A stretch of DNA of 64,000 nt from Candidatus Poribacteria bacterium. GTDB taxonomy: Bacteria; Poribacteria; WGA-4E; PCPOR2b. Position 1 is the stretch's first letter, and each line of letters begins with the position of its first letter. The notes below the pieces were generated by a model. That model ran no database searches. It was not told where the DNA came from and worked only from the letters and a program-made list of their open reading frames with translations. Both the position numbers and the translations under genes were made by a program. Positions 8,386 through 48,690 of this stretch are shown here, in pieces. Where the stretch lies: assembly GCA_965218095.1 (NCBI GenBank), contig OZ244587.1, positions 800,001 to 864,000 on the forward strand. Direction: 5' to 3'.

Positions 8386-10053
8386 TCAGATTGAGGTTGG
8401 AGTATACGCTTCAACCCCAATCTGATTTTTTGAAATTTGCTCCTCTTTTTTGCCAAAAAAGTAGATAAAGAGTAGAACCCCAGCAATGATTGTAACACTA
8501 TAACAAGCGATATAAAGCCCCAAATGGATTTTGTACATCACAAATTGGAGAGCTAAAACGACTCCAAAAACGAGTAGACCACATAAGTGCAAAATAAACA
8601 CCATATAATGCGTATAACGTTCGCTTTGAATATATTCTTGGGTGAGCGGTAGTCCGAAACTCGGTTTTGGGTAAAAGACAACGTAACAGAGCAGAGCGAT
8701 TAGACCCGGCAGCAAATAAAAACCTCCCCAAAAGCGGGGCCAAAGAAAGGTTGCAACGGTTGTGAATAACAAAGTATAAGGGAAGATCATGTAGACCAAT
8801 GCTGTTGCCTGCACGCCTCTCCATAAAGCATGAGGATTTGCAAGTGGGGCGCAGCGAAACAACCACGCAGCTCTCCAATGCTCCGAATACCGAATCTGAC
8901 TGAGGAAAGAGACGATGAAGCCTGAGCCGATAAAGAAGAAAAGAGCTGAGACACCGAGTGCGAGCCAGATAGTGAAAGGTTTTCCAATACTATTCAGAAA
9001 CAAATCATAGTCACGAAACAGGAGAACGAGAATAATAACGATACTCCCAAGATTACGGAGAAACCGGAATTGTGTCGTCCTATCGCGTCGCAGGTAGGCG
9101 AAAACAAGATCAGCCGTAGCACGGGTTTCACGCCTCCTGAACAGACGTGCGACGACAGATGTCTTGATCTTGAGTTGCGAACTTCGTGTTCTCCTAGCCT
9201 CCGACAAAGAGGCAAGATATTTTGAGTAACTTTTGGCAATACTGCGGAGCGGTCCAACCACCAACAGCACAATTGCAGCGATCGCAAGGGCGGTTAAAAT
9301 CAGAAATTGGCGGTGTGTATTTCCAAGTGCAAGCGACACTGCCCCAGCAAACCAACTGTTGGGTAACAGATAGAACGCCTTAAAGAGGGAGACCATCTTA
9401 TCCGTTGCCAACTCTGTAAAGAAACGGGGACCGAGTAGATAGATAGCCGGAAAGAAAATAGCAAAAGCCAACTGCGCGTATTGAGCAATATTTCGGAACC
9501 GCTCTTTCGTGTAAAGTTTTGTCAAATACCCTGCAAACACCGTCATCAATCCAATCATGAAAAAACCAGCGATAAAGGAGATAGGAAAGTAAACGACGGG
9601 AAAAAACGGATTTTGTTCTTCTGTCCACAACCCAAAGATAGCGGGTAGCAGATTTAAGCATCCCAACAACAGGACAGCGTAAGTCAGCAGCTGCGTTAGC
9701 TTCACAATAAAATAGGTGCGCGATGACACCGGTGTATGTGATACGACAAGATAGTTTGTCGAACTAAGAATAATATCAAAGTGCGGAAGAATCAAAAGTA
9801 CAACCAGCACCATTGTACCTGACAGTGTCAAAAGTGTATAACTGAACGTATCCAAGGGTAGGAAAAATACTGTCGTGGCAATTACGGCACTAAAAATAAA
9901 ACAGAAGAAGCACGTCAAACCGAGAGAAGCGTTGGCAAAACCACGTTCGCGTTCTGCATCAACTGCACGGGTGGCGACAGCCTTCTCTACTGTCAGAAGT
10001 TGCCTGTAGTGCGTTGGATCTGCCCCGAACATCTCAGCGATTTTGTCAAGCAT
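8386..10053 (-). CDS. ABC transporter permease (large polytopic membrane protein)
   Basis: About 12-14 hydrophobic segments; overlaps the upstream ABC ATPase. Confidence 0.75.
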   Translation of the reverse strand: MLDKIAEMFGADPTHYRQLLTVEKAVATRAVDAERERGFANASLGLTCFFCFIFSAVIATTVFFLPLDTFSYTLLTLSGTMVLVVLLILPHFDIILSSTNYLVVSHTPVSSRTYFIVKLTQLLTYAVLLLGCLNLLPAIFGLWTEEQNPFFPVVYFPISFIAGFFMIGLMTVFAGYLTKLYTKERFRNIAQYAQLAFAIFFPAIYLLGPRFFTELATDKMVSLFKAFYLLPNSWFAGAVSLALGNTHRQFLILTALAIAAIVLLVVGPLRSIAKSYSKYLASLSEARRTRSSQLKIKTSVVARLFRRRETRATADLVFAYLRRDRTTQFRFLRNLGSIVIILVLLFRDYDLFLNSIGKPFTIWLALGVSALFFFIGSGFIVSFLSQIRYSEHWRAAWLFRCAPLANPHALWRGVQATALVYMIFPYTLLFTTVATFLWPRFWGGFYLLPGLIALLCYVVFYPKPSFGLPLTQEYIQSERYTHYMVFILHLCGLLVFGVVLALQFVMYKIHLGLYIACYSVTIIAGVLLFIYFFGKKEEQISKNQIGVEAYTPTSI

Positions 10054-10825
10054 CGGAGCCTCCCATCAGAATCCGAAGGGCTTCCTCAGTTTTCTGGTCG
10101 ATTCCGCTGCTGGTATCCGTAAGTTGTGTGAAAATCTGGTTCAGTGCTGTTTCGCTTGTCATCTTTCGCAGTTCATCAACCGTTGCGTCGGCGATTAGTT
10201 TTCCTTGGTTGATAATCATAATCCGTGGACAGAGCGTCTCTGCGACTTCAAGAATATGAGTACAGTACAAGATGGTTTTCCCCGCATCAGCGAAGCGTTG
10301 TAGAATCGTTTTCATGAGTGTGACTGTCGTCACATCCAAGTTGGTGAAGGGTTCGTCCAAAAACAGAACATCCGGATTATGCAACAAGGCGGACATAATG
10401 AGCAGTTTCTGGCGCATCCCTTGCGAAAAACTACCTATCTTTTGCGTTCCCTGCGGCTCCATGTCAAAGAGTCGCGTGAGGTCACGTATCTTCTGGGCGA
10501 TAAGCGTTTCTTCGACGTGATAGAGCCTACCCATCAACTGAAGGTGCTCGACTAAGGTTAAACTTTCGTATAATTGCGCGTCTTCGGGGACGTATCCGAC
10601 ATGCTTTTTTAGTTCGAGCAGCTCGGCCGCCGCATCATAACCGGTGACCGAGATTTTACCTTCCGTCGGTTCAAGCAGGCCGACAAGCATCTTTAGTGTC
10701 GTGCTTTTTCCCGCACCGTTGGGCCCGAGGTAACCCACGATCTGACCTTGTGGCACATCAAAGCTAATATCATCAACAGCGACGGTCCTTCCATATCTCT
10801 TTGTGAGATGAGAGACGTGAATCAT
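10046..10825 (-). CDS. ABC-2-type transporter ATP-binding protein
   Basis: GPNGAGKST, FSQGM signature, LFLDEP, TH switch. Confidence 0.93.
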   Translation of the reverse strand: MIHVSHLTKRYGRTVAVDDISFDVPQGQIVGYLGPNGAGKSTTLKMLVGLLEPTEGKISVTGYDAAAELLELKKHVGYVPEDAQLYESLTLVEHLQLMGRLYHVEETLIAQKIRDLTRLFDMEPQGTQKIGSFSQGMRQKLLIMSALLHNPDVLFLDEPFTNLDVTTVTLMKTILQRFADAGKTILYCTHILEVAETLCPRIMIINQGKLIADATVDELRKMTSETALNQIFTQLTDTSSGIDQKTEEALRILMGGSDA

Positions 10826-18386: not shown

Positions 18387-21300
18387 TTACTTCAGAATCA
18401 GCATCTTCCGCGTCGCCGTAAAGTCGCCTGCTGTCAGTGTGTAAAAATAGAGGCCACTGGCGACAGACTCACCGAACTGATTGTGTCCGTCCCAATACAT
18501 CGCACGGCTTCGGTTCTGATACATACCCGCCGCCTGATGCCCCACCGCCAAACGCCGAACCGCCCCCCCGTTTATATCATAGATCGTCAGCGTCACCTCT
18601 GCGGGTTCTGCCAACTGATACGGTATCCATGTTTCCGGGTTAAACGGATTCGGGTAGTTGGGGTGCAACGCGGTTTCTTCAGGAATCAGCGAGGCTAACA
18701 GGTTTTGAAGATTCTCGATACCCTGTTGGAAGGCAACCGAACCGTCATCCGCCAACCGTGCATCCGCAATCCACGCTTCTATTGCCACTTTCAGTCCCCC
18801 CATGGTTGCAACCGGCGGCGCGGCAGGCGTTCCGAACTCCGCTGCCACGCGGATGAGGTCGAGAATGCTGACAACACCATCGCCATTGACATCCACCGGC
18901 GAGTTGGTGGGCACCGTTTCCCCCAACTGCTGTGCGACGAGAATCAGATCCAGAATGCTCACCTGCCCATCTCGATTCACATCCCCGCTTGCCAGTTGTC
19001 CCTCAACTGTAATGCTGATTTTATGTGGGCCCGCGGGGATGTTTTCTCCGGTGAGAGTGCCGAACTGAAAATTTTGTAGTGTTAAGTCTGTTTCGCCACC
19101 GGATTTTGCTTTGAATGTTACTTGTACTAGAGTGCCGCTGCCACTCACACCGTGCTCGGTTAGCCGAGCCGCGGTAATCCCTGTGATTTTACCCGCAGTG
19201 TTATCAATCCGCCCACCCTGAAAGAAGGTCGTTCCGCCTAGGAAATCGCCTTCGTTCACATCAATAGCTTCCAGCGCAGCAGCATTGAAGGCAATATCAA
19301 ACTGCCAGCCCGCGAGGTCGAAGACATCTTCGGCGCGGATGTCGAGGGTAAAGGTATCGCCGACATGAATGGGCGTCTTGGAAAAAGTGTAGCCGACACC
19401 GGGGATTGCCACTGTATATTCGGTGCTGGGTTCAAATCCGAAATGTGCGTTACCCAAGCTATGAACCTGGACTAACAAGACATTTCTCCCCTCCTCCAGC
19501 GTGACCGGGTAAAAATTAGTGTAATCGTCAGTCCCCCCCCTATCCCTGAAAGGGTGAATCAAAGCGCCGTTGAGCCAGGCCCTTACGTACGTGCTGCCGA
19601 CGTACATCGTTGTGTCCTGTTGCCGCGGCGAATACAGAGAGACATAACCGTAGAGGACTGCATCGATCCTGCGTTTCAGCATGGCTTCGACGTTATTATC
19701 CCCACGCGGCGGGAGTTTGTCGTGGTCGGCTGTCCACACGCTATCGCCGACAGACTTTCCTTCTGTTGCCCCATGGGTAGCCACTGCCATTTCTGTCACT
19801 CTGCCATCGCTGGCTTCTGCTAGTAGATCTGTACCGCTCTTTATATCTCTGCCTGGATCTGTGGACGGTAACACGACCCATAACCACGGCCCCTCTATTT
19901 TCGGCCCCCCTTTTGGGAACACCGGATTGTCGAACCAAAAGAGCTTTATATTCTCGCGGAACCCATCCAAAGGAGAAAGGTCGGCGATCTTGTTGTTCCC
20001 GACATGTAACCATTTTAAATCGGTTAAACTCGCAAGAGGCGATATGTCCGAGATGTTGTTGTGTCCAAGATTTAGCCATTCCAAGGCGGTTAACCCTGCA
20101 AGCGGCGATATGTCCGAGATGTCGTTGTGTTCAAGATCTAGCCATTTCAAGGCGGTTAACCCCGCAAGCGAGGATATGTCCGAGATGTTGTTGCTTTCAA
20201 GACCCAGACGGGTTACCCCGGTTAATCCCGCAAGGGATGATATATCCGATGTTTCGTTGCTGACAAGATACAGCTCTTTCAGACCGGTTAAGCCCGCCAA
20301 AGGTGTAAGGTCTGATATCTCTCCACCACAAATATTTACGGACTCCAGTGTTGTTAACCCCGCAAGGGGTGATAAATCAGATACAGGGTTGCCCCAAGTG
20401 CGAATGCGTTTCAGGCTGATTAATCCTGCAATCGGCGATAGGTCAGATACGTTGTTACTGGAAAAACTTACAAACTCCAGATTGATTAGTCCTATAAACG
20501 GCGATAGATCGGATGCGTTGTTACGGGCACAATATAACCACTCCAGGTTGATTAATCCTGCAATCGGCGACAGGTCGGATACCTTGTTATCGGGAAAACT
20601 TAAAGTCTCCAGATTGATTAATCCTGCCAAGGGCGAGAGATCCGATATCGAGTTGTCGGGCAAGTCCAGATCTGTCAGATTGGTTGCAAACTGAAGTCCT
20701 GTCAAATCTTGGATGCCCCTGTCTCCCGCCTCCAGTCTTCTCAATGTTTTCATCTCTGCCACAGTAATCGGGGCATTGGGGCTTTTGCCAAGATTTTCTG
20801 CAATGGCGGCGCGGAGGTTCGGGTCCGGGATATGAACAACGGTGCCCGGTGGAGGCGGCGGCGGCGGTTCTGGTGGCTTGACGAGCTCCGGGAAACCCAG
20901 CGCAAAAATCACAGCCAGAAAATTCGATGTCCATGTGTCGCGTTTCACACGCCCGTTCTCACCGACGAGCGGCAGCAAGCCGACGTTTTGTAGTCCGACA
21001 TTCTCACGAATCTTTTCGATGAACACTTCGGTTGTTAACCCAACCGCGGCGGCGGCATGTGCCGCGTCTACTGGGGCTTGAAACGCCTCGTGGAAACGTG
21101 AAATCGGTTCGATGCCACTCAAGACACCACCCGTCGCTTCAAGCGCCAGTCTGTAGCGGTTCATATCTTCGTCCACGCGGGTATCCATCTCTGATTTTTC
21201 GACGTAGAGGCGTAGCGCCTGCGCTTTGTCGTAAGCTGGGGTTGCATTAGCCTCAATCACCGGACGCACCTCATCTTCAAAGGTTTTCATCCCCTCGGTG

Positions 21301-22571
21301 TGGCATCCCATGCACGAAAGCCCGTTGCGGACGGTCGGATCGCTCGCGGCGGGATTGGAAACGATTTTAATCGGCGCGGCATCCAACCGGAACCCCGTCC
21401 CATTGACCAGATAGTATCCCTGCAATCCGTTGGGGAGATTGAAGATAACCTCCCCGCCATCATGCGTGAAATTGAGCGGATGGGTGAAGATGTTCTGTGT
21501 GCCAACACTCCCGGCAAAGTCGTAGCTTTTCCAATACGCTCCATATCGAGAGCTATGCCTCTCCACCACCCGGTTGTTATTGGAAACACCCGAATTGTTG
21601 AATCCCGCTCGCCAGACATCAACCCCCGGCGCATCGCGGCGATTGCGGACTACATCAACTTCCAGTCGGGTCTCTAATTCCCCATCCGTCAATGGCAGAG
21701 AAAGCAGCTCGTGGTACAGCGGTGGCAGAGATGCCGTCGCAAGAAACCAGTCGATATGAATCGATGGCACATCGCAGTCCATCTCTGTCTGTAACCGTGT
21801 TAGTTGTTCCCGCAGCGCGGTCTGTGTGGGCGCATCAAACGCGATGTGATAGGGATACGCCCCTTCAATCTGTGTCCAGCCGTCATTGCGATCCCACTCA
21901 TAGTGCCGGATGTCGATGGTGAAGATTGTCCCCTGTGGGTCAATGGACTGTGGGTTGGTGACTTCGCGCTCCCATGAGAGGCTATTGACCAGTTTGGAGA
22001 GCCCGGATCGGTACTCTTGGAGTATCTCCGCTGTCCTGCCCGCATTATAGAGATGTGTGAGTGTGAAATAGCGTGTGAAGGCGCGGTCAAATACTGGGAG
22101 TGACATAAGGTGAGTCTCAATGGTATCCAGTATTTCACCGGGGGGAATGAAACGGCTATCGGGTGGGGGGATTGCCGCCCAATCGGGTGCGCCGGCTAAA
22201 ATCCAACGGCGAATCGTGTCAATCGCCGGAGCGGACAGGGGGGGCGATCCAAGTGGCATCCGTTTGGCTGTGTCAGTGGTCAGGAGCCGTTTATACAATT
22301 CGGACGCTTCTGGGTTTCCCGGCATAACCGTTCCGTTTTCGATGAGCGGGGTGTGCTCAATTAAGAGTGTCTCTCGATAGGCGCCGTCGGGGCCGTGGCA
22401 GATGAGGCACTTTTGTTCAAAGATAGCATAGGCATCTTGTGCAATCGGCTGCTGGGCAGAGACAGTTTGAGAACCTACGATGAGAATCAATAGACTGATG
22501 AGTGAGATAAGATGCTGCTGTTGCTTACAAGCCCCAATCAAATAGGGGATGAAATGATGCTTAAACATCAT
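18387..22571 (-). CDS. Large multidomain secreted protein: c-type cytochrome domains, Pro linker, internalin-like LRRs, cohesin, dockerin-like repeats, T9SS/FlgD-like C-terminal domain
   Basis: CLICH and CMGCH; 22-aa xISDLSPLAGLxxL repeats; DLAGWQFDI; GDVNRDGQVSILDL x2; NYPNPFNPETWIPY...TRKMLILK. Confidence 0.85.
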   Translation of the reverse strand: MMFKHHFIPYLIGACKQQQHLISLISLLILIVGSQTVSAQQPIAQDAYAIFEQKCLICHGPDGAYRETLLIEHTPLIENGTVMPGNPEASELYKRLLTTDTAKRMPLGSPPLSAPAIDTIRRWILAGAPDWAAIPPPDSRFIPPGEILDTIETHLMSLPVFDRAFTRYFTLTHLYNAGRTAEILQEYRSGLSKLVNSLSWEREVTNPQSIDPQGTIFTIDIRHYEWDRNDGWTQIEGAYPYHIAFDAPTQTALREQLTRLQTEMDCDVPSIHIDWFLATASLPPLYHELLSLPLTDGELETRLEVDVVRNRRDAPGVDVWRAGFNNSGVSNNNRVVERHSSRYGAYWKSYDFAGSVGTQNIFTHPLNFTHDGGEVIFNLPNGLQGYYLVNGTGFRLDAAPIKIVSNPAASDPTVRNGLSCMGCHTEGMKTFEDEVRPVIEANATPAYDKAQALRLYVEKSEMDTRVDEDMNRYRLALEATGGVLSGIEPISRFHEAFQAPVDAAHAAAAVGLTTEVFIEKIRENVGLQNVGLLPLVGENGRVKRDTWTSNFLAVIFALGFPELVKPPEPPPPPPPGTVVHIPDPNLRAAIAENLGKSPNAPITVAEMKTLRRLEAGDRGIQDLTGLQFATNLTDLDLPDNSISDLSPLAGLINLETLSFPDNKVSDLSPIAGLINLEWLYCARNNASDLSPFIGLINLEFVSFSSNNVSDLSPIAGLISLKRIRTWGNPVSDLSPLAGLTTLESVNICGGEISDLTPLAGLTGLKELYLVSNETSDISSLAGLTGVTRLGLESNNISDISSLAGLTALKWLDLEHNDISDISPLAGLTALEWLNLGHNNISDISPLASLTDLKWLHVGNNKIADLSPLDGFRENIKLFWFDNPVFPKGGPKIEGPWLWVVLPSTDPGRDIKSGTDLLAEASDGRVTEMAVATHGATEGKSVGDSVWTADHDKLPPRGDNNVEAMLKRRIDAVLYGYVSLYSPRQQDTTMYVGSTYVRAWLNGALIHPFRDRGGTDDYTNFYPVTLEEGRNVLLVQVHSLGNAHFGFEPSTEYTVAIPGVGYTFSKTPIHVGDTFTLDIRAEDVFDLAGWQFDIAFNAAALEAIDVNEGDFLGGTTFFQGGRIDNTAGKITGITAARLTEHGVSGSGTLVQVTFKAKSGGETDLTLQNFQFGTLTGENIPAGPHKISITVEGQLASGDVNRDGQVSILDLILVAQQLGETVPTNSPVDVNGDGVVSILDLIRVAAEFGTPAAPPVATMGGLKVAIEAWIADARLADDGSVAFQQGIENLQNLLASLIPEETALHPNYPNPFNPETWIPYQLAEPAEVTLTIYDINGGAVRRLAVGHQAAGMYQNRSRAMYWDGHNQFGESVASGLYFYTLTAGDFTATRKMLILK
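19960..20720 (-). repeat. 66-bp LRR coding repeats
   Basis: GATATGTCCGAGATGT recurs at 20041, 20107 and 20173. Confidence 0.85.
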
Positions 22572-22692
22572 GGTAAAATAATCCTTTCTCGATCCACAAT
22601 TCCCCGAATTCGGTATACCCCACACGGAACGGAGTGAATCGAAGGGTGAGTTTCAATACGTAGCCCTGGATACTCTTGACTTAGAAGTTCGC

Positions 22693-40345: not shown

Positions 40346-41245
40346 CTACTCCATCTCGCTTTTGACACGTTGTAGCATAAGCATAGCCTGCTTTCGGATG
40401 TCATCATCTTTGGCATTACTTAACATCTCAAGCGTTGCAATTGCCAATTGGGACTTACCTTGGATCGCGTAAGTAACTCCTAAATAATACTGCGCGGGTT
40501 CATAGGACTCGCTGTCGGAATATTTGTCGATGACGATTTGGAAATGCTTTTCAGCTTTTTGGAAATAGTCTTTCTCATTTTCGCCGGCAGCGTTCTGCCC
40601 GTACTGGAGTCCCAAATTCACATACAATTCCGGCAACAGTCCGGTTTTGTTATTCGGGTCGTGTTTCACCACTGTATCGAATAGGGGCTTTCCTTTTTCA
40701 AGTTTGCCTCGCTTGATGTAAATCAGTGCAAGTCCGGCGGTAGCCTTTAGATCGTTCGTATCCCTCTGGACCGCTTCCTTCAGCTTCTTAAATTCCTCTT
40801 CATCTTTGAGGGCGCTTTCCATCAATGTGGTAAATTCTTGGGGTGGCCGATAACCGGGATTGAGGCTTATGAAATCCCCCTCGGCACTGAGGAATACAAC
40901 TGCCGGATATCCGGTAACGCCGTATTTTCTCTGGGCATCAGCGTTTTCCGGGCGGTCTGTATCTTCAGGATTGACCTTGAGGTTGACAAACTTCTTTGAA
41001 AGCTCAATGATTTTTGAATCCGTAAATGTTTCGGCATCCAGCCGCTTACACCAGCCTCACCAATCGGTGTAGAAGTCCATCATGACTGGCTTGCCTGTTT
41101 TTTGGGCTTCTGCCAACCCTTTCTCGATTGACTCCTCCCACTGAATCTTTCCTGTTGCCAGTGCTGCCGGACTTGCAACAACAGCCAGTAACAGGGTGGC
41201 AAGCACGATGCGCCATCTTTGTCTCCAAACAGAATTTAACATCAT
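40346..41245 (-). CDS. Exported thioredoxin-fold + TPR protein with in-frame TGA (probable selenocysteine, UxxC)
   Basis: Signal peptide, KPVMMDFYTDW-TGA-GWCKRL...YGVTGYPAVVFL; open frame continues into TPR helices; 299 aa if read through. Confidence 0.8.
41025..41052 (-). promoter_or_regulatory. Candidate bacterial SECIS hairpin
   Basis: After UGA: GGUGU-AAG-CGGC-UGGAU-GCCG-AA-ACAUU; apical loop starts after a 16-nt spacer, G at loop position 2. Confidence 0.6.
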
Positions 41246-41369
41246 TTTTCTCCTTTGAAGGAAGTTTTTTCTCCTTTGAAGGAAGTTGGGGATAGAAACT
41301 AAAGACCTAAATAAATCCGTCAATACTCTAGACGAATCGATCCGAAAAAAGTGTAATTTTGATTCCAAG

Positions 41370-41585
41370 TTAGCCTCCAGACGTCGGCTGGTCAGCAGCA
41401 GATTCTGCTTGCATCTGTTCAAGGGCTGAAGCACTAATTGTTTTGCTGCTCAATGTTGTCCGACACTTCTGGCAGGTCGTCACCAGTTTCACTAGATTGC
41501 TCCGCCTGCCGAGTTTGTTCTGCTTCTGTTCCGTTTCGACGTAACGCTTGCAGCGAGGGCACCACTGCTGTTGGGGTGTCAACAT
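41370..41585 (-). CDS. Small zinc-ribbon protein
   Basis: CPRC...CQKC, AAGGAGG RBS; 71 aa. Confidence 0.65.
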   Translation of the reverse strand: MLTPQQQWCPRCKRYVETEQKQNKLGRRSNLVKLVTTCQKCRTTLSSKTISASALEQMQAESAADQPTSGG

Positions 41586-45796: not shown

Positions 45797-46638
45797 CTAG
45801 GTTCTGTTGACATTTGAGTATAAGGTTGTGGCATAATAGAAGAATGATGCCAATAATCTTACCCGATGACCAATGGAAAAAGATATACTCGTTTCTTCTA
45901 ACTTGTCCCAACATCTATGTTGGCAACGAAGCGACAACACGCCGCTTTATCGAAGCTGTTCTCTGGGCGACCCGTAGCGGTGCTCAATGGAGACTTCTGC
46001 CAGACACCTATGGTAAATCGAACACCCTCTATAAGCGTTTTGCTCGGTGGTGCGACAAAGGGGGCTTCACACAGATGCACCACCACTTCGCCTCTGACCC
46101 CGATATCGAGTCGCTTATTGTGGACAGTACAATCATTCGAGCGCACCCGTGTGCGGCGGGCACCTTAAAAAGCTGGCACCTTAAAAAAAAGGGTGGCACT
46201 GAAAACCAAGCGTTAGGTCGCTCTCGCGGGGGATTCAGTACAAAAATTCACATCACAGTTGACGGCCTGGGTAATCCCCTAAGAATTCATCTGACCCCCG
46301 GTCAAAGAAACGACATAGCAGAAGCAGAAGGGTTGATACTTGGATATAAAAGCGAGTATGTGATTGGAGACAAGGGATATGACTCCGACAATTTTATCGC
46401 GGTTATTGAGGCGAATGGAGCGATTGCGGTGATACCGCCCAAAAGTCATCGTGTGGATCAAAGAGATTACGACAAACATCTGTACAAAGAGAGACATCTG
46501 GTTGAATATTTCATTAACAAGATAAAATGGTATCGCCGCATCTTCTCTCGGTTCGAGAAGTTAGCTATCCGTTATTTTGGATTTCTCAGCTTTGTCGCCA
46601 CTCTTATATGGCTCCCTTGAAATGTCAACAGAACCTAG
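45797..46638 (+). mobile_element. IS5-family (IS427-like) element copy 1 with in-frame fused transposase (ORF to 46620)
   Basis: IRs TAGGTTCTGTTGACA, CTAG at both ends; GAQWRLLP, GRSRGGFSTKIH, GDKGYDSD, RFEK. Confidence 0.9.
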
Positions 46639-46642
46639 TATA

Positions 46643-46852
46643 TTACTTGAGGGGATGGTAGCCGCCGGGGTGATAAGGATGGCACTTTGACAGGCGTTTA
46701 AGCGTCAGCCAGCCCCCTTTCAAAACCCCATGCTTCGTGATTGCTTCGAGGGCGTATTGGGAGCATGTTGGATAGAACCGGCACGTCGGCGGAAAGAGCT
46801 GTGAAATCAGTTGACGATAGCAGTGGATGGCATAAATCAGCAATATTTTCAT
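46643..46852 (-). CDS. yidD: Membrane protein insertion efficiency factor YidD
   Basis: [15 protein letters not shown]. Confidence 0.95.
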
Positions 46853-46870
46853 AGCGTTAAGGAAGCCGCT

Positions 46871-47218
46871 CTAAGTTTTGAGGACATTGGCTTGCTGTAG
46901 AAGTTGCAAGAGTGAGGCTTGGACTTGCTGGCACTTCATACCAACCGCCGCAGATCTACCGACCACAATAATATCATATCTTGGACGAATTTGATGCTTT
47001 GATAATCTGAAGGATTCCCGAATCAGGCGTTTGAGGCGATTTCGTACGACGCTTTTCCCTACTTTCTTACTGACGGTGATTCCGAGACGGGTGCAACTTA
47101 GAGACTGCCTGAAAACGTATATAACAAGGTAACGATTCCAATACTTCTTTCCTCTTTTATACCCTCGTTGAAATTCCCAGCGATGCGTGAGTCGTTCGGG
47201 ATGAACCTGGTGTGCCAT
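46871..47218 (-). CDS. rnpA: Ribonuclease P protein component
   Basis: RLGITVSKKVGKSVVRNRLKR. Confidence 0.95.
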   Translation of the reverse strand: MAHQVHPERLTHRWEFQRGYKRGKKYWNRYLVIYVFRQSLSCTRLGITVSKKVGKSVVRNRLKRLIRESFRLSKHQIRPRYDIIVVGRSAAVGMKCQQVQASLLQLLQQANVLKT

Positions 47219-47220
47219 AA

Positions 47221-47889
47221 CTAAAATCTTTTGAGTCGAAGCCGTTCCTCCCATTGCTGTCCGTCAATCTGTCCGTGAAGATAAGCCCTATAATTTGCGA
47301 CTTGAGCCTCTAAACTCATTTGCGGTGTTCCATCTTCTTCTTCTGCAATTCCTCGTATAACATCGATTGTATTCTCCTGCATCTGCGCCCCATGCACAAT
47401 CGCACAAATCATCAGGAATTCTTCCTTGATTGCGCGGTCCGAAAACGCACGAGGAATAAAGTTGAGCAGCACAATATTTTGTTTACCCTCAAGACGACCA
47501 TTCTTCAGCCGCCAGTGGATAACCCGAATTTGTTTCTCAACAAAGAGTTGACGCAATGCTTCTTGCTGTAGTGAAATCGGTGCCTTAGGCGCCGCAACAT
47601 CAGTTGGTTGATCTATTGCCTGTGCATCCGGAATGTCGTAGGGAACAAAACCAAGTAACTCTGCAGGCGGTTTGCCAACTTCAAATGCAATCACAAGGGG
47701 CTTGGTGTTCTCAGGATGACGAATCACTTCATAGGGCATCCGTCCGGTTTCCCGTCGGTTGTATTTCCCCCACTCTTCCATTAGGGCGAACTGGAAGTAA
47801 TAATCCTCTGGTGTTTGTAGTGTGCAAGCCAACAACAGAAAAGGAAAACTCAAAAGCAAAAAACAGGTTTTGTTGACTGAAGATTTCAT
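47221..47889 (-). CDS. Hypothetical lipoprotein
   Basis: Hydrophobic N-terminus ending LLAC (lipobox-like). Confidence 0.55.
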   Translation of the reverse strand: MKSSVNKTCFLLLSFPFLLLACTLQTPEDYYFQFALMEEWGKYNRRETGRMPYEVIRHPENTKPLVIAFEVGKPPAELLGFVPYDIPDAQAIDQPTDVAAPKAPISLQQEALRQLFVEKQIRVIHWRLKNGRLEGKQNIVLLNFIPRAFSDRAIKEEFLMICAIVHGAQMQENTIDVIRGIAEEEDGTPQMSLEAQVANYRAYLHGQIDGQQWEERLRLKRF

Positions 47890-47893
47890 CAAC

Positions 47894-48406
47894 TCAGTTG
47901 ATATACAGGTACTTTTTCCAGGATTCGTCATAAGATCGACCACCACGGCTTAGGTGCAGATAGGAGATGATTGAGGGTGCCTTAGGAGAACGCTTGGGAA
48001 ACATCCGCGCTTCATGAGGCTTCCGATCTCCCTTGTTGGAGTTGCATCCTTTACACGCCGTCACGACATTTTCCCACGCCGTTGAACCTCCTCTCGAACG
48101 CGGGACGACATGATCAATTGTTAGCGTTGATGGAGGAAAATGTTCATGACAATATTGGCATGTATATTTATCGCGCACTAGGACATTCTTACGTGAAAAC
48201 TTCACAACGCAGTGAGGGATATGGACATAATTCACCAAACGGATCACCAATGGCACTTTCATCGAAGTGGTTGGCGAGCGAATTTCCCGATCAGAAAATT
48301 CCTCCGGGCATGCAACACCCTTGACGAGCATCTTCATTGCACGCTTTAAGTTACAAACGTTAATCGCCTCATAGCTTGCATTTAAGACAAGTACACTTGC
48401 TTCCAT
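47894..48406 (-). CDS. HNH endonuclease
   Basis: VLVLNASYE, RDKYTCQYC, TIDHVVPRSRGG..WENVVTACKGCN. Confidence 0.92.
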   Translation of the reverse strand: MEASVLVLNASYEAINVCNLKRAMKMLVKGVACPEEFSDREIRSPTTSMKVPLVIRLVNYVHIPHCVVKFSRKNVLVRDKYTCQYCHEHFPPSTLTIDHVVPRSRGGSTAWENVVTACKGCNSNKGDRKPHEARMFPKRSPKAPSIISYLHLSRGGRSYDESWKKYLYIN

Positions 48407-48690
48407 AACCCCTGCTCCAATTACCAATCTGAGTCTTCCAAATTGGATAAATTAATTTTATTGTAACACACCTGTCTTTGAACCTGCAAGCAAAATTCCA
48501 TTCGTCATCCCTTGAGGGGCTTGATCTCAACGGATATTTCCTTTGACATACAAAGGGTTTGATGATAAAATCGCAGCCAACGAGTCAAAGTGGACTCTCA
48601 GACAACAGGCCTCAGGAAGAACTCCGCTAATGCCTGATGCCCAGGTCCTGATACCTAACATCCTGATGCTTGAAACTCCGGTGAAATCCG

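Follow-up and report, generated by a model that had tools for sequence, protein, structure and literature searches.

A probable thioredoxin-fold selenoprotein with tetratricopeptide repeats and a predicted signal peptide in Candidatus Poribacteria

The window analysed in this study is a 64,000-nucleotide (nt) stretch of a Candidatus Poribacteria genome (contig OZ244587.1, positions 800,001 to 864,000), and its minus strand carries a gene that we propose encodes an exported thioredoxin-fold selenoprotein with C-terminal tetratricopeptide repeats (TPRs). The reading frame comprises 299 codons, begins at ATG 41245 or ATG 41242, and closes with TAG 40348..40346. Its sole internal stop is TGA 41059..41057 at codon 63, in the context DFYTDW-U-GWCK, where U denotes the residue at the TGA, read here as selenocysteine (Sec). 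Around this codon, 130 codons are open upstream (62 counted from the ATG) and 236 downstream. All six frames of the window were scanned for redox-type contexts around a TGA flanked on each side by 30 or more open codons. Of the 39 sites obtained, only the TGA at codon 63 was judged to belong to a real coding frame; the other 38 were set aside on their contexts and positions alone. An earlier note on this DNA had proposed that the open fragments 41057..41434 and 40346..40825 share one frame parted by this TGA, that the TGA takes the place of the first Cys in the W-C-x-x-C motif of thioredoxins, that the 77 intervening codons encode the remainder of the thioredoxin fold including a G-Y-P motif, and that TPRs are fused to it. 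All of this agrees with our analysis: the 77 codons are open, homologues have Cys at the position of the TGA, Pfam thioredoxin families match the read-through product, the proline of G-Y-P (P114) is invariant, and several Pfam TPR families match the C-terminal half. The features of the locus are listed in Table 1.

Table 1. Features of the gene and its surroundings, in window coordinates
Feature	Position	Strand	Basis or remark
Complete coding sequence of the predicted Sec-thioredoxin-TPR protein	40346..41245	-	Frame; full-length orthologue alignment; dN/dS of each of the four segments within 0.18-0.49
TGA codon 63, read as Sec; first, predicted nucleophilic position of U-G-W-C	41057..41059	-	TGA in 32/32 Poribacteria loci; TGC in L033; Cys in distant homologues
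Cys66 (TGT), predicted resolving Cys of UxxC	41048..41050	-	Invariant in 39/39 aligned sequences
SECIS-like mini hairpin CGGC-UGGAU-GCCG	41032..41044	-	Loop 41036..41040, 16 nt past UGA; loop GG invariant
Predicted Sec-type (secretory) signal peptide, residues 1-30	41156..41245	-	By inspection; like pattern in orthologues
Thioredoxin-fold domain, residues 35-141, DsbD-gamma/DsbH-like	40823..41143	-	Pfam PF13098 and PF13899; PDB 2kuc, 1.2e-13; Foldseek 2ju5, 1vrs
cis-Pro candidate P114 (of G-Y-P)	40904..40906	-	Invariant in 39/39 aligned homologues
C-terminal all-helical TPR domain, residues 147-299	40349..40807	-	Pfam TPR_19, TPR_1, TPR_2 and related; AlphaFold2 helices
Ribosome-binding region	41245..41286	-	Perfect 21-nt tandem duplication, each copy with Shine-Dalgarno AAGGAG
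Intrinsic terminator hairpin and U-tract past the stop codon	40290..40327	-	-21.9 kcal/mol, z = -6.17, 0/200 shuffles as good
Zinc-ribbon-like open reading frame of 71 residues, located between the selenoprotein gene and mnmE; two CxxC pairs	41370-41585	-	No Pfam family; tblastn in 30/32 loci

A search of genome contigs with an alignment of 12 close relatives gave 34 loci, 32 of which belong to metagenome-assembled genomes (MAGs) of Poribacteria and encode proteins with 44-73% amino acid identity to the window protein. The codon homologous to codon 63 is TGA in every one of these 32 loci, in the motif U-[G/S]-[W/F/S/V/A]-C, and is TGC in a spirochaete locus (L033, 27% identity). The last locus, L034, whose match is limited to part of the thioredoxin domain, was not used, and L009 (frameshift in the signal peptide) and L019 (non-ATG start) were omitted from the codon analyses. 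The frameshift in L009 (10000-10140) lies within the signal-peptide region, the remainder of that orthologue, including the TGA, is intact, and an assembly error is possible. The ratio of nonsynonymous to synonymous substitution rates (dN/dS) against the window gene is 0.49 for the signal peptide, 0.23 for residues 31-62, 0.20 for residues 64-145, and 0.18 for residues 146-299. These values indicate purifying selection on either side of the TGA, and both sides are therefore translated and constrained. The earlier note had suggested that orthologues be compared for TGA or TGY at this codon, and had held that a TGA unique to this genome with relaxed selection downstream would speak against Sec; the TGA is instead shared by all of the Poribacteria loci, and the segments that follow it are under purifying selection.

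The in-frame UGA aligns with a Cys codon or Cys residue in more distant homologues. An exhaustive protein search gave 25146 matches at E <= 1e-3 and 78 at E <= 1e-30, and 119 of the best 150 cluster representatives have W-C-x-x-C at the aligned position, one has W-S-x-x-C, and 30 are fragments without the site. Cys is also found at this position in P0078, P0080, P0084, and P0086, and P0194, which aligns over 251 residues at 29% identity, combines the Cys with a signal peptide, a thioredoxin domain, and TPRs. Four Cys-type relatives from other organisms (P0023, P0032, P0122, and P0123) have two to three tandem W-C-x-W-C thioredoxin domains and no TPR.

The thioredoxin domain of the read-through product was matched by Thioredoxin_2 (PF13098) over residues 47-141 (E = 1e-15, 58.4 bits against a cut-off of 27) and by Thioredoxin_7 (PF13899) over residues 35-120 (E = 1.3e-15, 57.7 bits against a cut-off of 27), and its best PDB match by sequence, 2kuc, is a putative disulphide isomerase. 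An AlphaFold2 model built from a 39-sequence alignment has a predicted local distance difference test (pLDDT) score of 91.6 and a predicted TM score (pTM) of 0.80. In this model, U63 follows the strand of residues 54-58 and directly precedes the helix of residues 64-73; eight further helices extend over residues 135-298, including the TPR domain, with a pLDDT of at least 95, and an N-terminal helix of residues 3-23 is modelled at low confidence. In Foldseek comparisons of the thioredoxin domain, target TM values of 0.68-0.79 and root mean square deviations (RMSDs) of 2.1-4 Å were obtained for DsbH, DsbD-gamma, and thioredoxins. The predicted structure is thus a thioredoxin fold with a CxxC-type motif at the N-terminus of helix α1, in which P114 is a candidate for the cis conformation. 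The Pfam TPR families match residues 147-295; the only PDB matches of this domain by sequence are designed consensus TPR proteins, and hence they offer no functional clue. In loci L011 and L030 and in proteins P0003, P0007, P0014, and P0040, one TPR-like helix pair is duplicated by an insertion of approximately 39 residues.

Downstream of the UGA lies the hairpin CGGC-UGGAU-GCCG, which the earlier note had described as resembling a bacterial selenocysteine insertion sequence (SECIS), and which is present at 41044..41032 with exactly 16 nt from the UGA to the loop. Its onset is 12 nt past the UGA, its stem has 4 bp, and its loop has 5 nt with a G at position 2. The bacterial SECIS model quoted in a 2026 review (PMC13188914, legend of Fig. 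2) has an upper stem of 4-16 bp, a loop of 3-9 nt whose first two positions include a G, a distance of 16-37 nt from the UGA, and a minimum free energy of at most -7.5 kcal/mol. The geometry of the window hairpin agrees with the consensus terms at their lower limits, and the 16-nt spacing is at the limit itself. The core GGC/GCC pairs are retained in 30-31 of 31 distinct sequences. Codon entropy was calculated for 116 amino-acid-conserved columns of 31 sequences (mean normalised entropy, 0.65), and the five-column windows of lowest entropy across the gene are those of residues 67-73. The three lowest of the 59 conserved columns with four- to sixfold degeneracy are L69 (CTG, 31/31), A71 (GCC, 31/31), and R68 (CGG, 28/30), all of which overlap the hairpin; Leu columns outside the hairpin use five to six codons (six at both L82 and L89). 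The hairpin is thus supported by constraint at the RNA level, that is, at synonymous sites, and not by covariation. In L022, L023, and L025, a core pair is weakened, and all three are among the four sequences in which codon 72 lengthens the stem downward, a pattern that is suggestive and falls short of significance. In L033, the Cys homologue, the corresponding site forms no such hairpin (-0.5 kcal/mol).

Other RNA structures were considered and rejected. An extended 6-bp stem has 74% of its cells paired, without compensatory change. An alternative 8-bp stem (UGUAAGCG with CGUUUACR), seen in several single-sequence folds, is lost when codon 73 is ACA or ACU and is therefore not conserved. Rfam gave no match in the window at the gathering threshold, and the six sub-threshold matches obtained in a permissive scan of 40900-41400 (e.g., snoRNAs and preQ1-II) were taken as chance.

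We consider it very probable that this gene encodes a genuine exported Sec-thioredoxin-TPR protein. UGA codon 63 would be decoded as Sec by SelB and Sec-tRNA(Sec), with SelB recruited by the very small hairpin, in which the G-G of the loop lies 17-18 nt past the UGA. The signal peptide of approximately 30 residues, with its A-L-A cleavage site, would route the protein via the Sec (secretory) translocon to the periplasm. There the DsbD-gamma/DsbH-like domain, identified above by its family matches and predicted fold, would perform thiol-disulfide (selenenylsulfide) exchange through U-G-W-C, with Sec, exposed where helix α1 starts, as the attacking residue. By analogy with the thioredoxin-TPR chaperedoxin YbbN/CnoX, whose layout it has, but in the cell envelope, the TPR domain may hold clients or a partner. 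We give a specific role as an envelope reductase or chaperedoxin even to slightly better than even chances. The gene probably arose by replacement of Cys with Sec inside a widespread Cys-type Thioredoxin_7-TPR family, and in the Poribacteria genomes examined the Sec-for-Cys form has become fixed, within a conserved arrangement of yidC, jag, mnmE, the zinc-ribbon-like open reading frame (ORF), and this gene. Evidence for Sec machinery at the level of the phylum comes from the literature and concerns genomes other than that of the window. For one freshwater Poribacteria MAG, Supplementary Table 1 of PMC13582414 records SelA, SelB, and SelD, each in two copies, together with two tRNA-Sec, six selenoproteins, and formate dehydrogenases of the Sec type, and SelA and SelB clusters of orthologous groups are described as co-occurring in most sponge-symbiont bins (PMC5649159).

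Several observations weigh against a Sec-decoded, exported redox protein. ARAGORN found no tRNA, and hence no tRNA-Sec, in the 64-kb window, and no tRNA in the 34 fetched loci, where only tRNAs were sought; the Sec-machinery families had no match among the 41 scanned ORFs of the window. The free energy of the hairpin alone is -6.8 kcal/mol, above the -7.5 kcal/mol limit of the SECIS model, and that of a 48-nt stretch taken from the UGA is -11.9 kcal/mol; the 81-nt fold is no better than its shuffles (z = -0.54). With RNAalifold, 33 sequences gave only three conserved pairs (GGC/GCC) and no two-sided change, and 8 of 31 distinct sequences lack the fourth pair, C16-G28. The SECIS-like hairpin of the earlier note is supported by synonymous-site constraint and by neither covariation nor folding relative to shuffled sequences. 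The NCBIfam selenoprotein models match at the level of a domain and score far below their cut-offs (TsoB NF045694, 81.6 against 805; NF041199, 30.2 against 300; VPGUxxT type 2 NF041383, 23 against 275). The top whole-chain Foldseek matches in the PDB are the YbbN structures 3qou and 3qdn (E = 2.6e-7 to 4.8e-7, probability 1.00), a likeness that is architectural only (TM 0.28-0.30, RMSD of approximately 22 Å, 14-16% identity); the domain packing therefore differs. Export, redox activity, and client binding are predicted properties.

The same hairpin could also serve SelB in delivering a SelC-like tRNA-ReC charged with Cys, in which case the product would be an ordinary CxxC thioredoxin-TPR protein. 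Insertion of Sec and of Cys cannot be distinguished from sequence, tRNA-ReC-like tRNAs are reported in several Sec-using phyla (PMC13582414), and SECIS-dependent recoding of UGA to Cys has been described (Vargas-Rodriguez 2018, as cited in PMC13582414). The Poribacteria MAG tabulated in PMC13582414, however, has two canonical tRNA-Sec together with SelA and SelD, and no obvious gain would come from holding TGA over TGY in 32 of 32 lineages; we regard recoding to Cys as improbable. Termination at the TGA, which would leave a 62-residue N-terminal peptide and a separate TPR protein translated from an internal start, is how current annotation reads the locus. The earlier note had foreseen that gene callers would split the gene, and many database relatives are indeed C-terminal fragments of 166-235 residues whose calls begin past the TGA; one of these is annotated as a TPR protein, its sole name being 'tetratricopeptide repeat protein [Candidatus Poribacteria bacterium]', and 7 of 24 aligned database relatives (P0007-P0012 and P0052) start with a Met directly before Cys66. 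Across the genome loci, however, residue 65, at which some of these gene calls start, varies among W, F, S, V, and A, which leaves no conserved start codon. Moreover, the 77 codons past the TGA encode the remaining thioredoxin fold and are conserved at the low dN/dS given above, and a thioredoxin fold severed at its active site would be non-functional, so that true termination is highly improbable.

We give scarcely any credence to a reading of the TGA as Trp or Gly, whether by an alternative genetic code or by general read-through, although W is the residue at this position in several database proteins. A word-indexed protein search gave 167 matches, in which the only close relatives covering at least 91% of the query are five near-full-length entries (P0002-P0006); all five have W at the position of codon 63, as do P0050 and P0054. 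The W-bearing entries derive from short contigs (954-15193 bases), and, to judge by the protein entries alone, the simplest account is that their genes were called under a table in which TGA is Trp. The 29 window ORFs assigned to families end in TAA (13), TGA (10), or TAG (6); the genetic code is therefore standard. TGA is also the terminal stop of the orthologous gene itself in six orthologues (L021-L025 and L027), and homologues hold the catalytic Cys, not Trp, at the site. That the TGA is a nonsense mutation and the gene a pseudogene in this genome would take a single TGY-to-TGA change, and has next to no likelihood: all 32 orthologues, some with as little as 44% identity, have the TGA, the codons before and after it are under purifying selection, and the synteny and the upstream region are conserved.

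If the Sec-thioredoxin-TPR reading is correct, it is tempting to extend it to all of the Poribacteria examined, which would then be selenium-dependent for one conserved periplasmic Sec counterpart of CnoX, decoded via a 3-4-bp SECIS. This broader proposal is rather doubtful. Were it true, the CnoX counterpart might protect or repair exported proteins, for example against oxidants inside the sponge host, the protein would be a marker selenoprotein for the phylum, and its hairpin would be a natural minimal SECIS, at the lower end of what the bacterial consensus allows.

The closest known structures to the thioredoxin domain are those of DsbD-gamma and DsbH (1vrs, target TM 0.78-0.79; 2ju5, 0.70), and 2fwe is also among the matches. 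The NCBIfam models of DsbD (NF001419, E = 4.4e-17) and DsbH (NF043050, E = 1.4e-11), both periplasmic reductase-type thioredoxin folds, matched the window protein without reaching their cut-offs (61.9 against 330 and 44.8 against 190, respectively), and the alignment is confined to the thioredoxin domain. In contrast to DsbD, the window protein lacks the membrane and alpha domains, has Sec in place of Cys, and carries the additional TPR domain. YbbN/CnoX has the same domain order, with an N-terminal thioredoxin fold followed by C-terminal TPRs, and two of the Cys homologues are named 'thioredoxin-like negative regulator of GroEL' by JGI. CnoX is cytoplasmic, whereas the window protein has a predicted signal peptide and a thioredoxin domain of the Thioredoxin_7/DsbD-gamma type.

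Selenoproteins with a UxxC motif in a thioredoxin fold, including members of the PF13098 family, are well known (PMC13188914). The selenoproteins named 'Thiol:disulfide interchange protein' in that review's table of prokaryotic selenoproteins have PF13098, UxxC, and Sec at the first position in common with the window protein and were likewise predicted by Sec/Cys homology. Compared by description, that table entry differs from the window protein in that neither a TPR fusion nor Poribacteria is mentioned, and the words 'TPR', 'tetratricopeptide', and 'Poribacteria' each have zero occurrences in the main text of PMC13188914. The Trx7/PDZ selenoproteins (NF041199) resemble the window protein in combining a Thioredoxin_7-type domain, whose redox motif contains Sec, with a fused protein-binding module, and the N-terminal 60 positions of the model align to residues 34-91 (E = 2.1e-7). 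The fused partner is, however, PDZ and not TPR, the match of 30.2 bits is far below the cut-off of 300, and the motif is given as CxxU (PMC13188914), whereas that of the window protein is UxxC.

In the literature searched, with BSepDB outside the sequence-level scope, we found no account of the TPR fusion, of conservation across Poribacteria, or of the compact hairpin. What is new is thus the combination, a Sec/Cys pair in the thioredoxin-TPR architecture; for selenoprotein specialists, a UxxC thioredoxin fold is of the expected type and a fairly ordinary addition. Public annotation, which cuts this gene and gives either short 'TPR proteins' or W at the active site, therefore conceals a conserved, predicted envelope redox protein of an uncultured phylum associated with sponges. 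The correct reading would add a selenoprotein conserved in all 32 poribacterial species genomes examined and would imply the presence of Sec machinery in them. The very small, sequence-invariant hairpin also provides a test case for SECIS predictors.

The predicted N-terminus, MMLNSVWRQRWRIVLATLLLAVVASPAALA|TGK, has an Arg-rich, basic n-region, a hydrophobic core of 12 residues, and A-L-A before T31. The 21-nt unit duplicated upstream of the gene is single-copy in each of the seven orthologous upstream regions compared, and a consensus scan revealed no convincing sigma-70 promoter upstream of the gene. The terminator past the stop codon was overlooked by the consensus promoter and terminator scan and was revealed by direct folding. 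It is probably bidirectional, shared with a convergent rsuA-like gene, because it is flanked by an A-run in addition to the T-run. The gene closes a minus-strand run of yidC, jag, mnmE, the 71-residue ORF, and the gene itself, and the rsuA-like gene lies opposite. mnmE is found upstream in 30 of the 32 Poribacteria loci. The adjoining genes include no redox partner such as DsbD or CcdA.

Elsewhere in the window, an IS5-family transposase gene (45814-46620) is adjoined by two ORFs, one (47894-48427) with an IscB/Cas9d-like match that is partial and the other (47221-47946) without a family, and the region 45814-48427 may be a degraded IscB-type element. In the nuo run on the minus strand (8386-10825), an ABC-transporter ATPase gene and a 555-residue ORF without a family match are located between nuoF and nuoG. 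Also on the minus strand, 18387-22625 encodes a protein of 1412 residues whose leucine-rich repeats are internalin-like and which carries a C-terminal sorting domain of type IX secretion.

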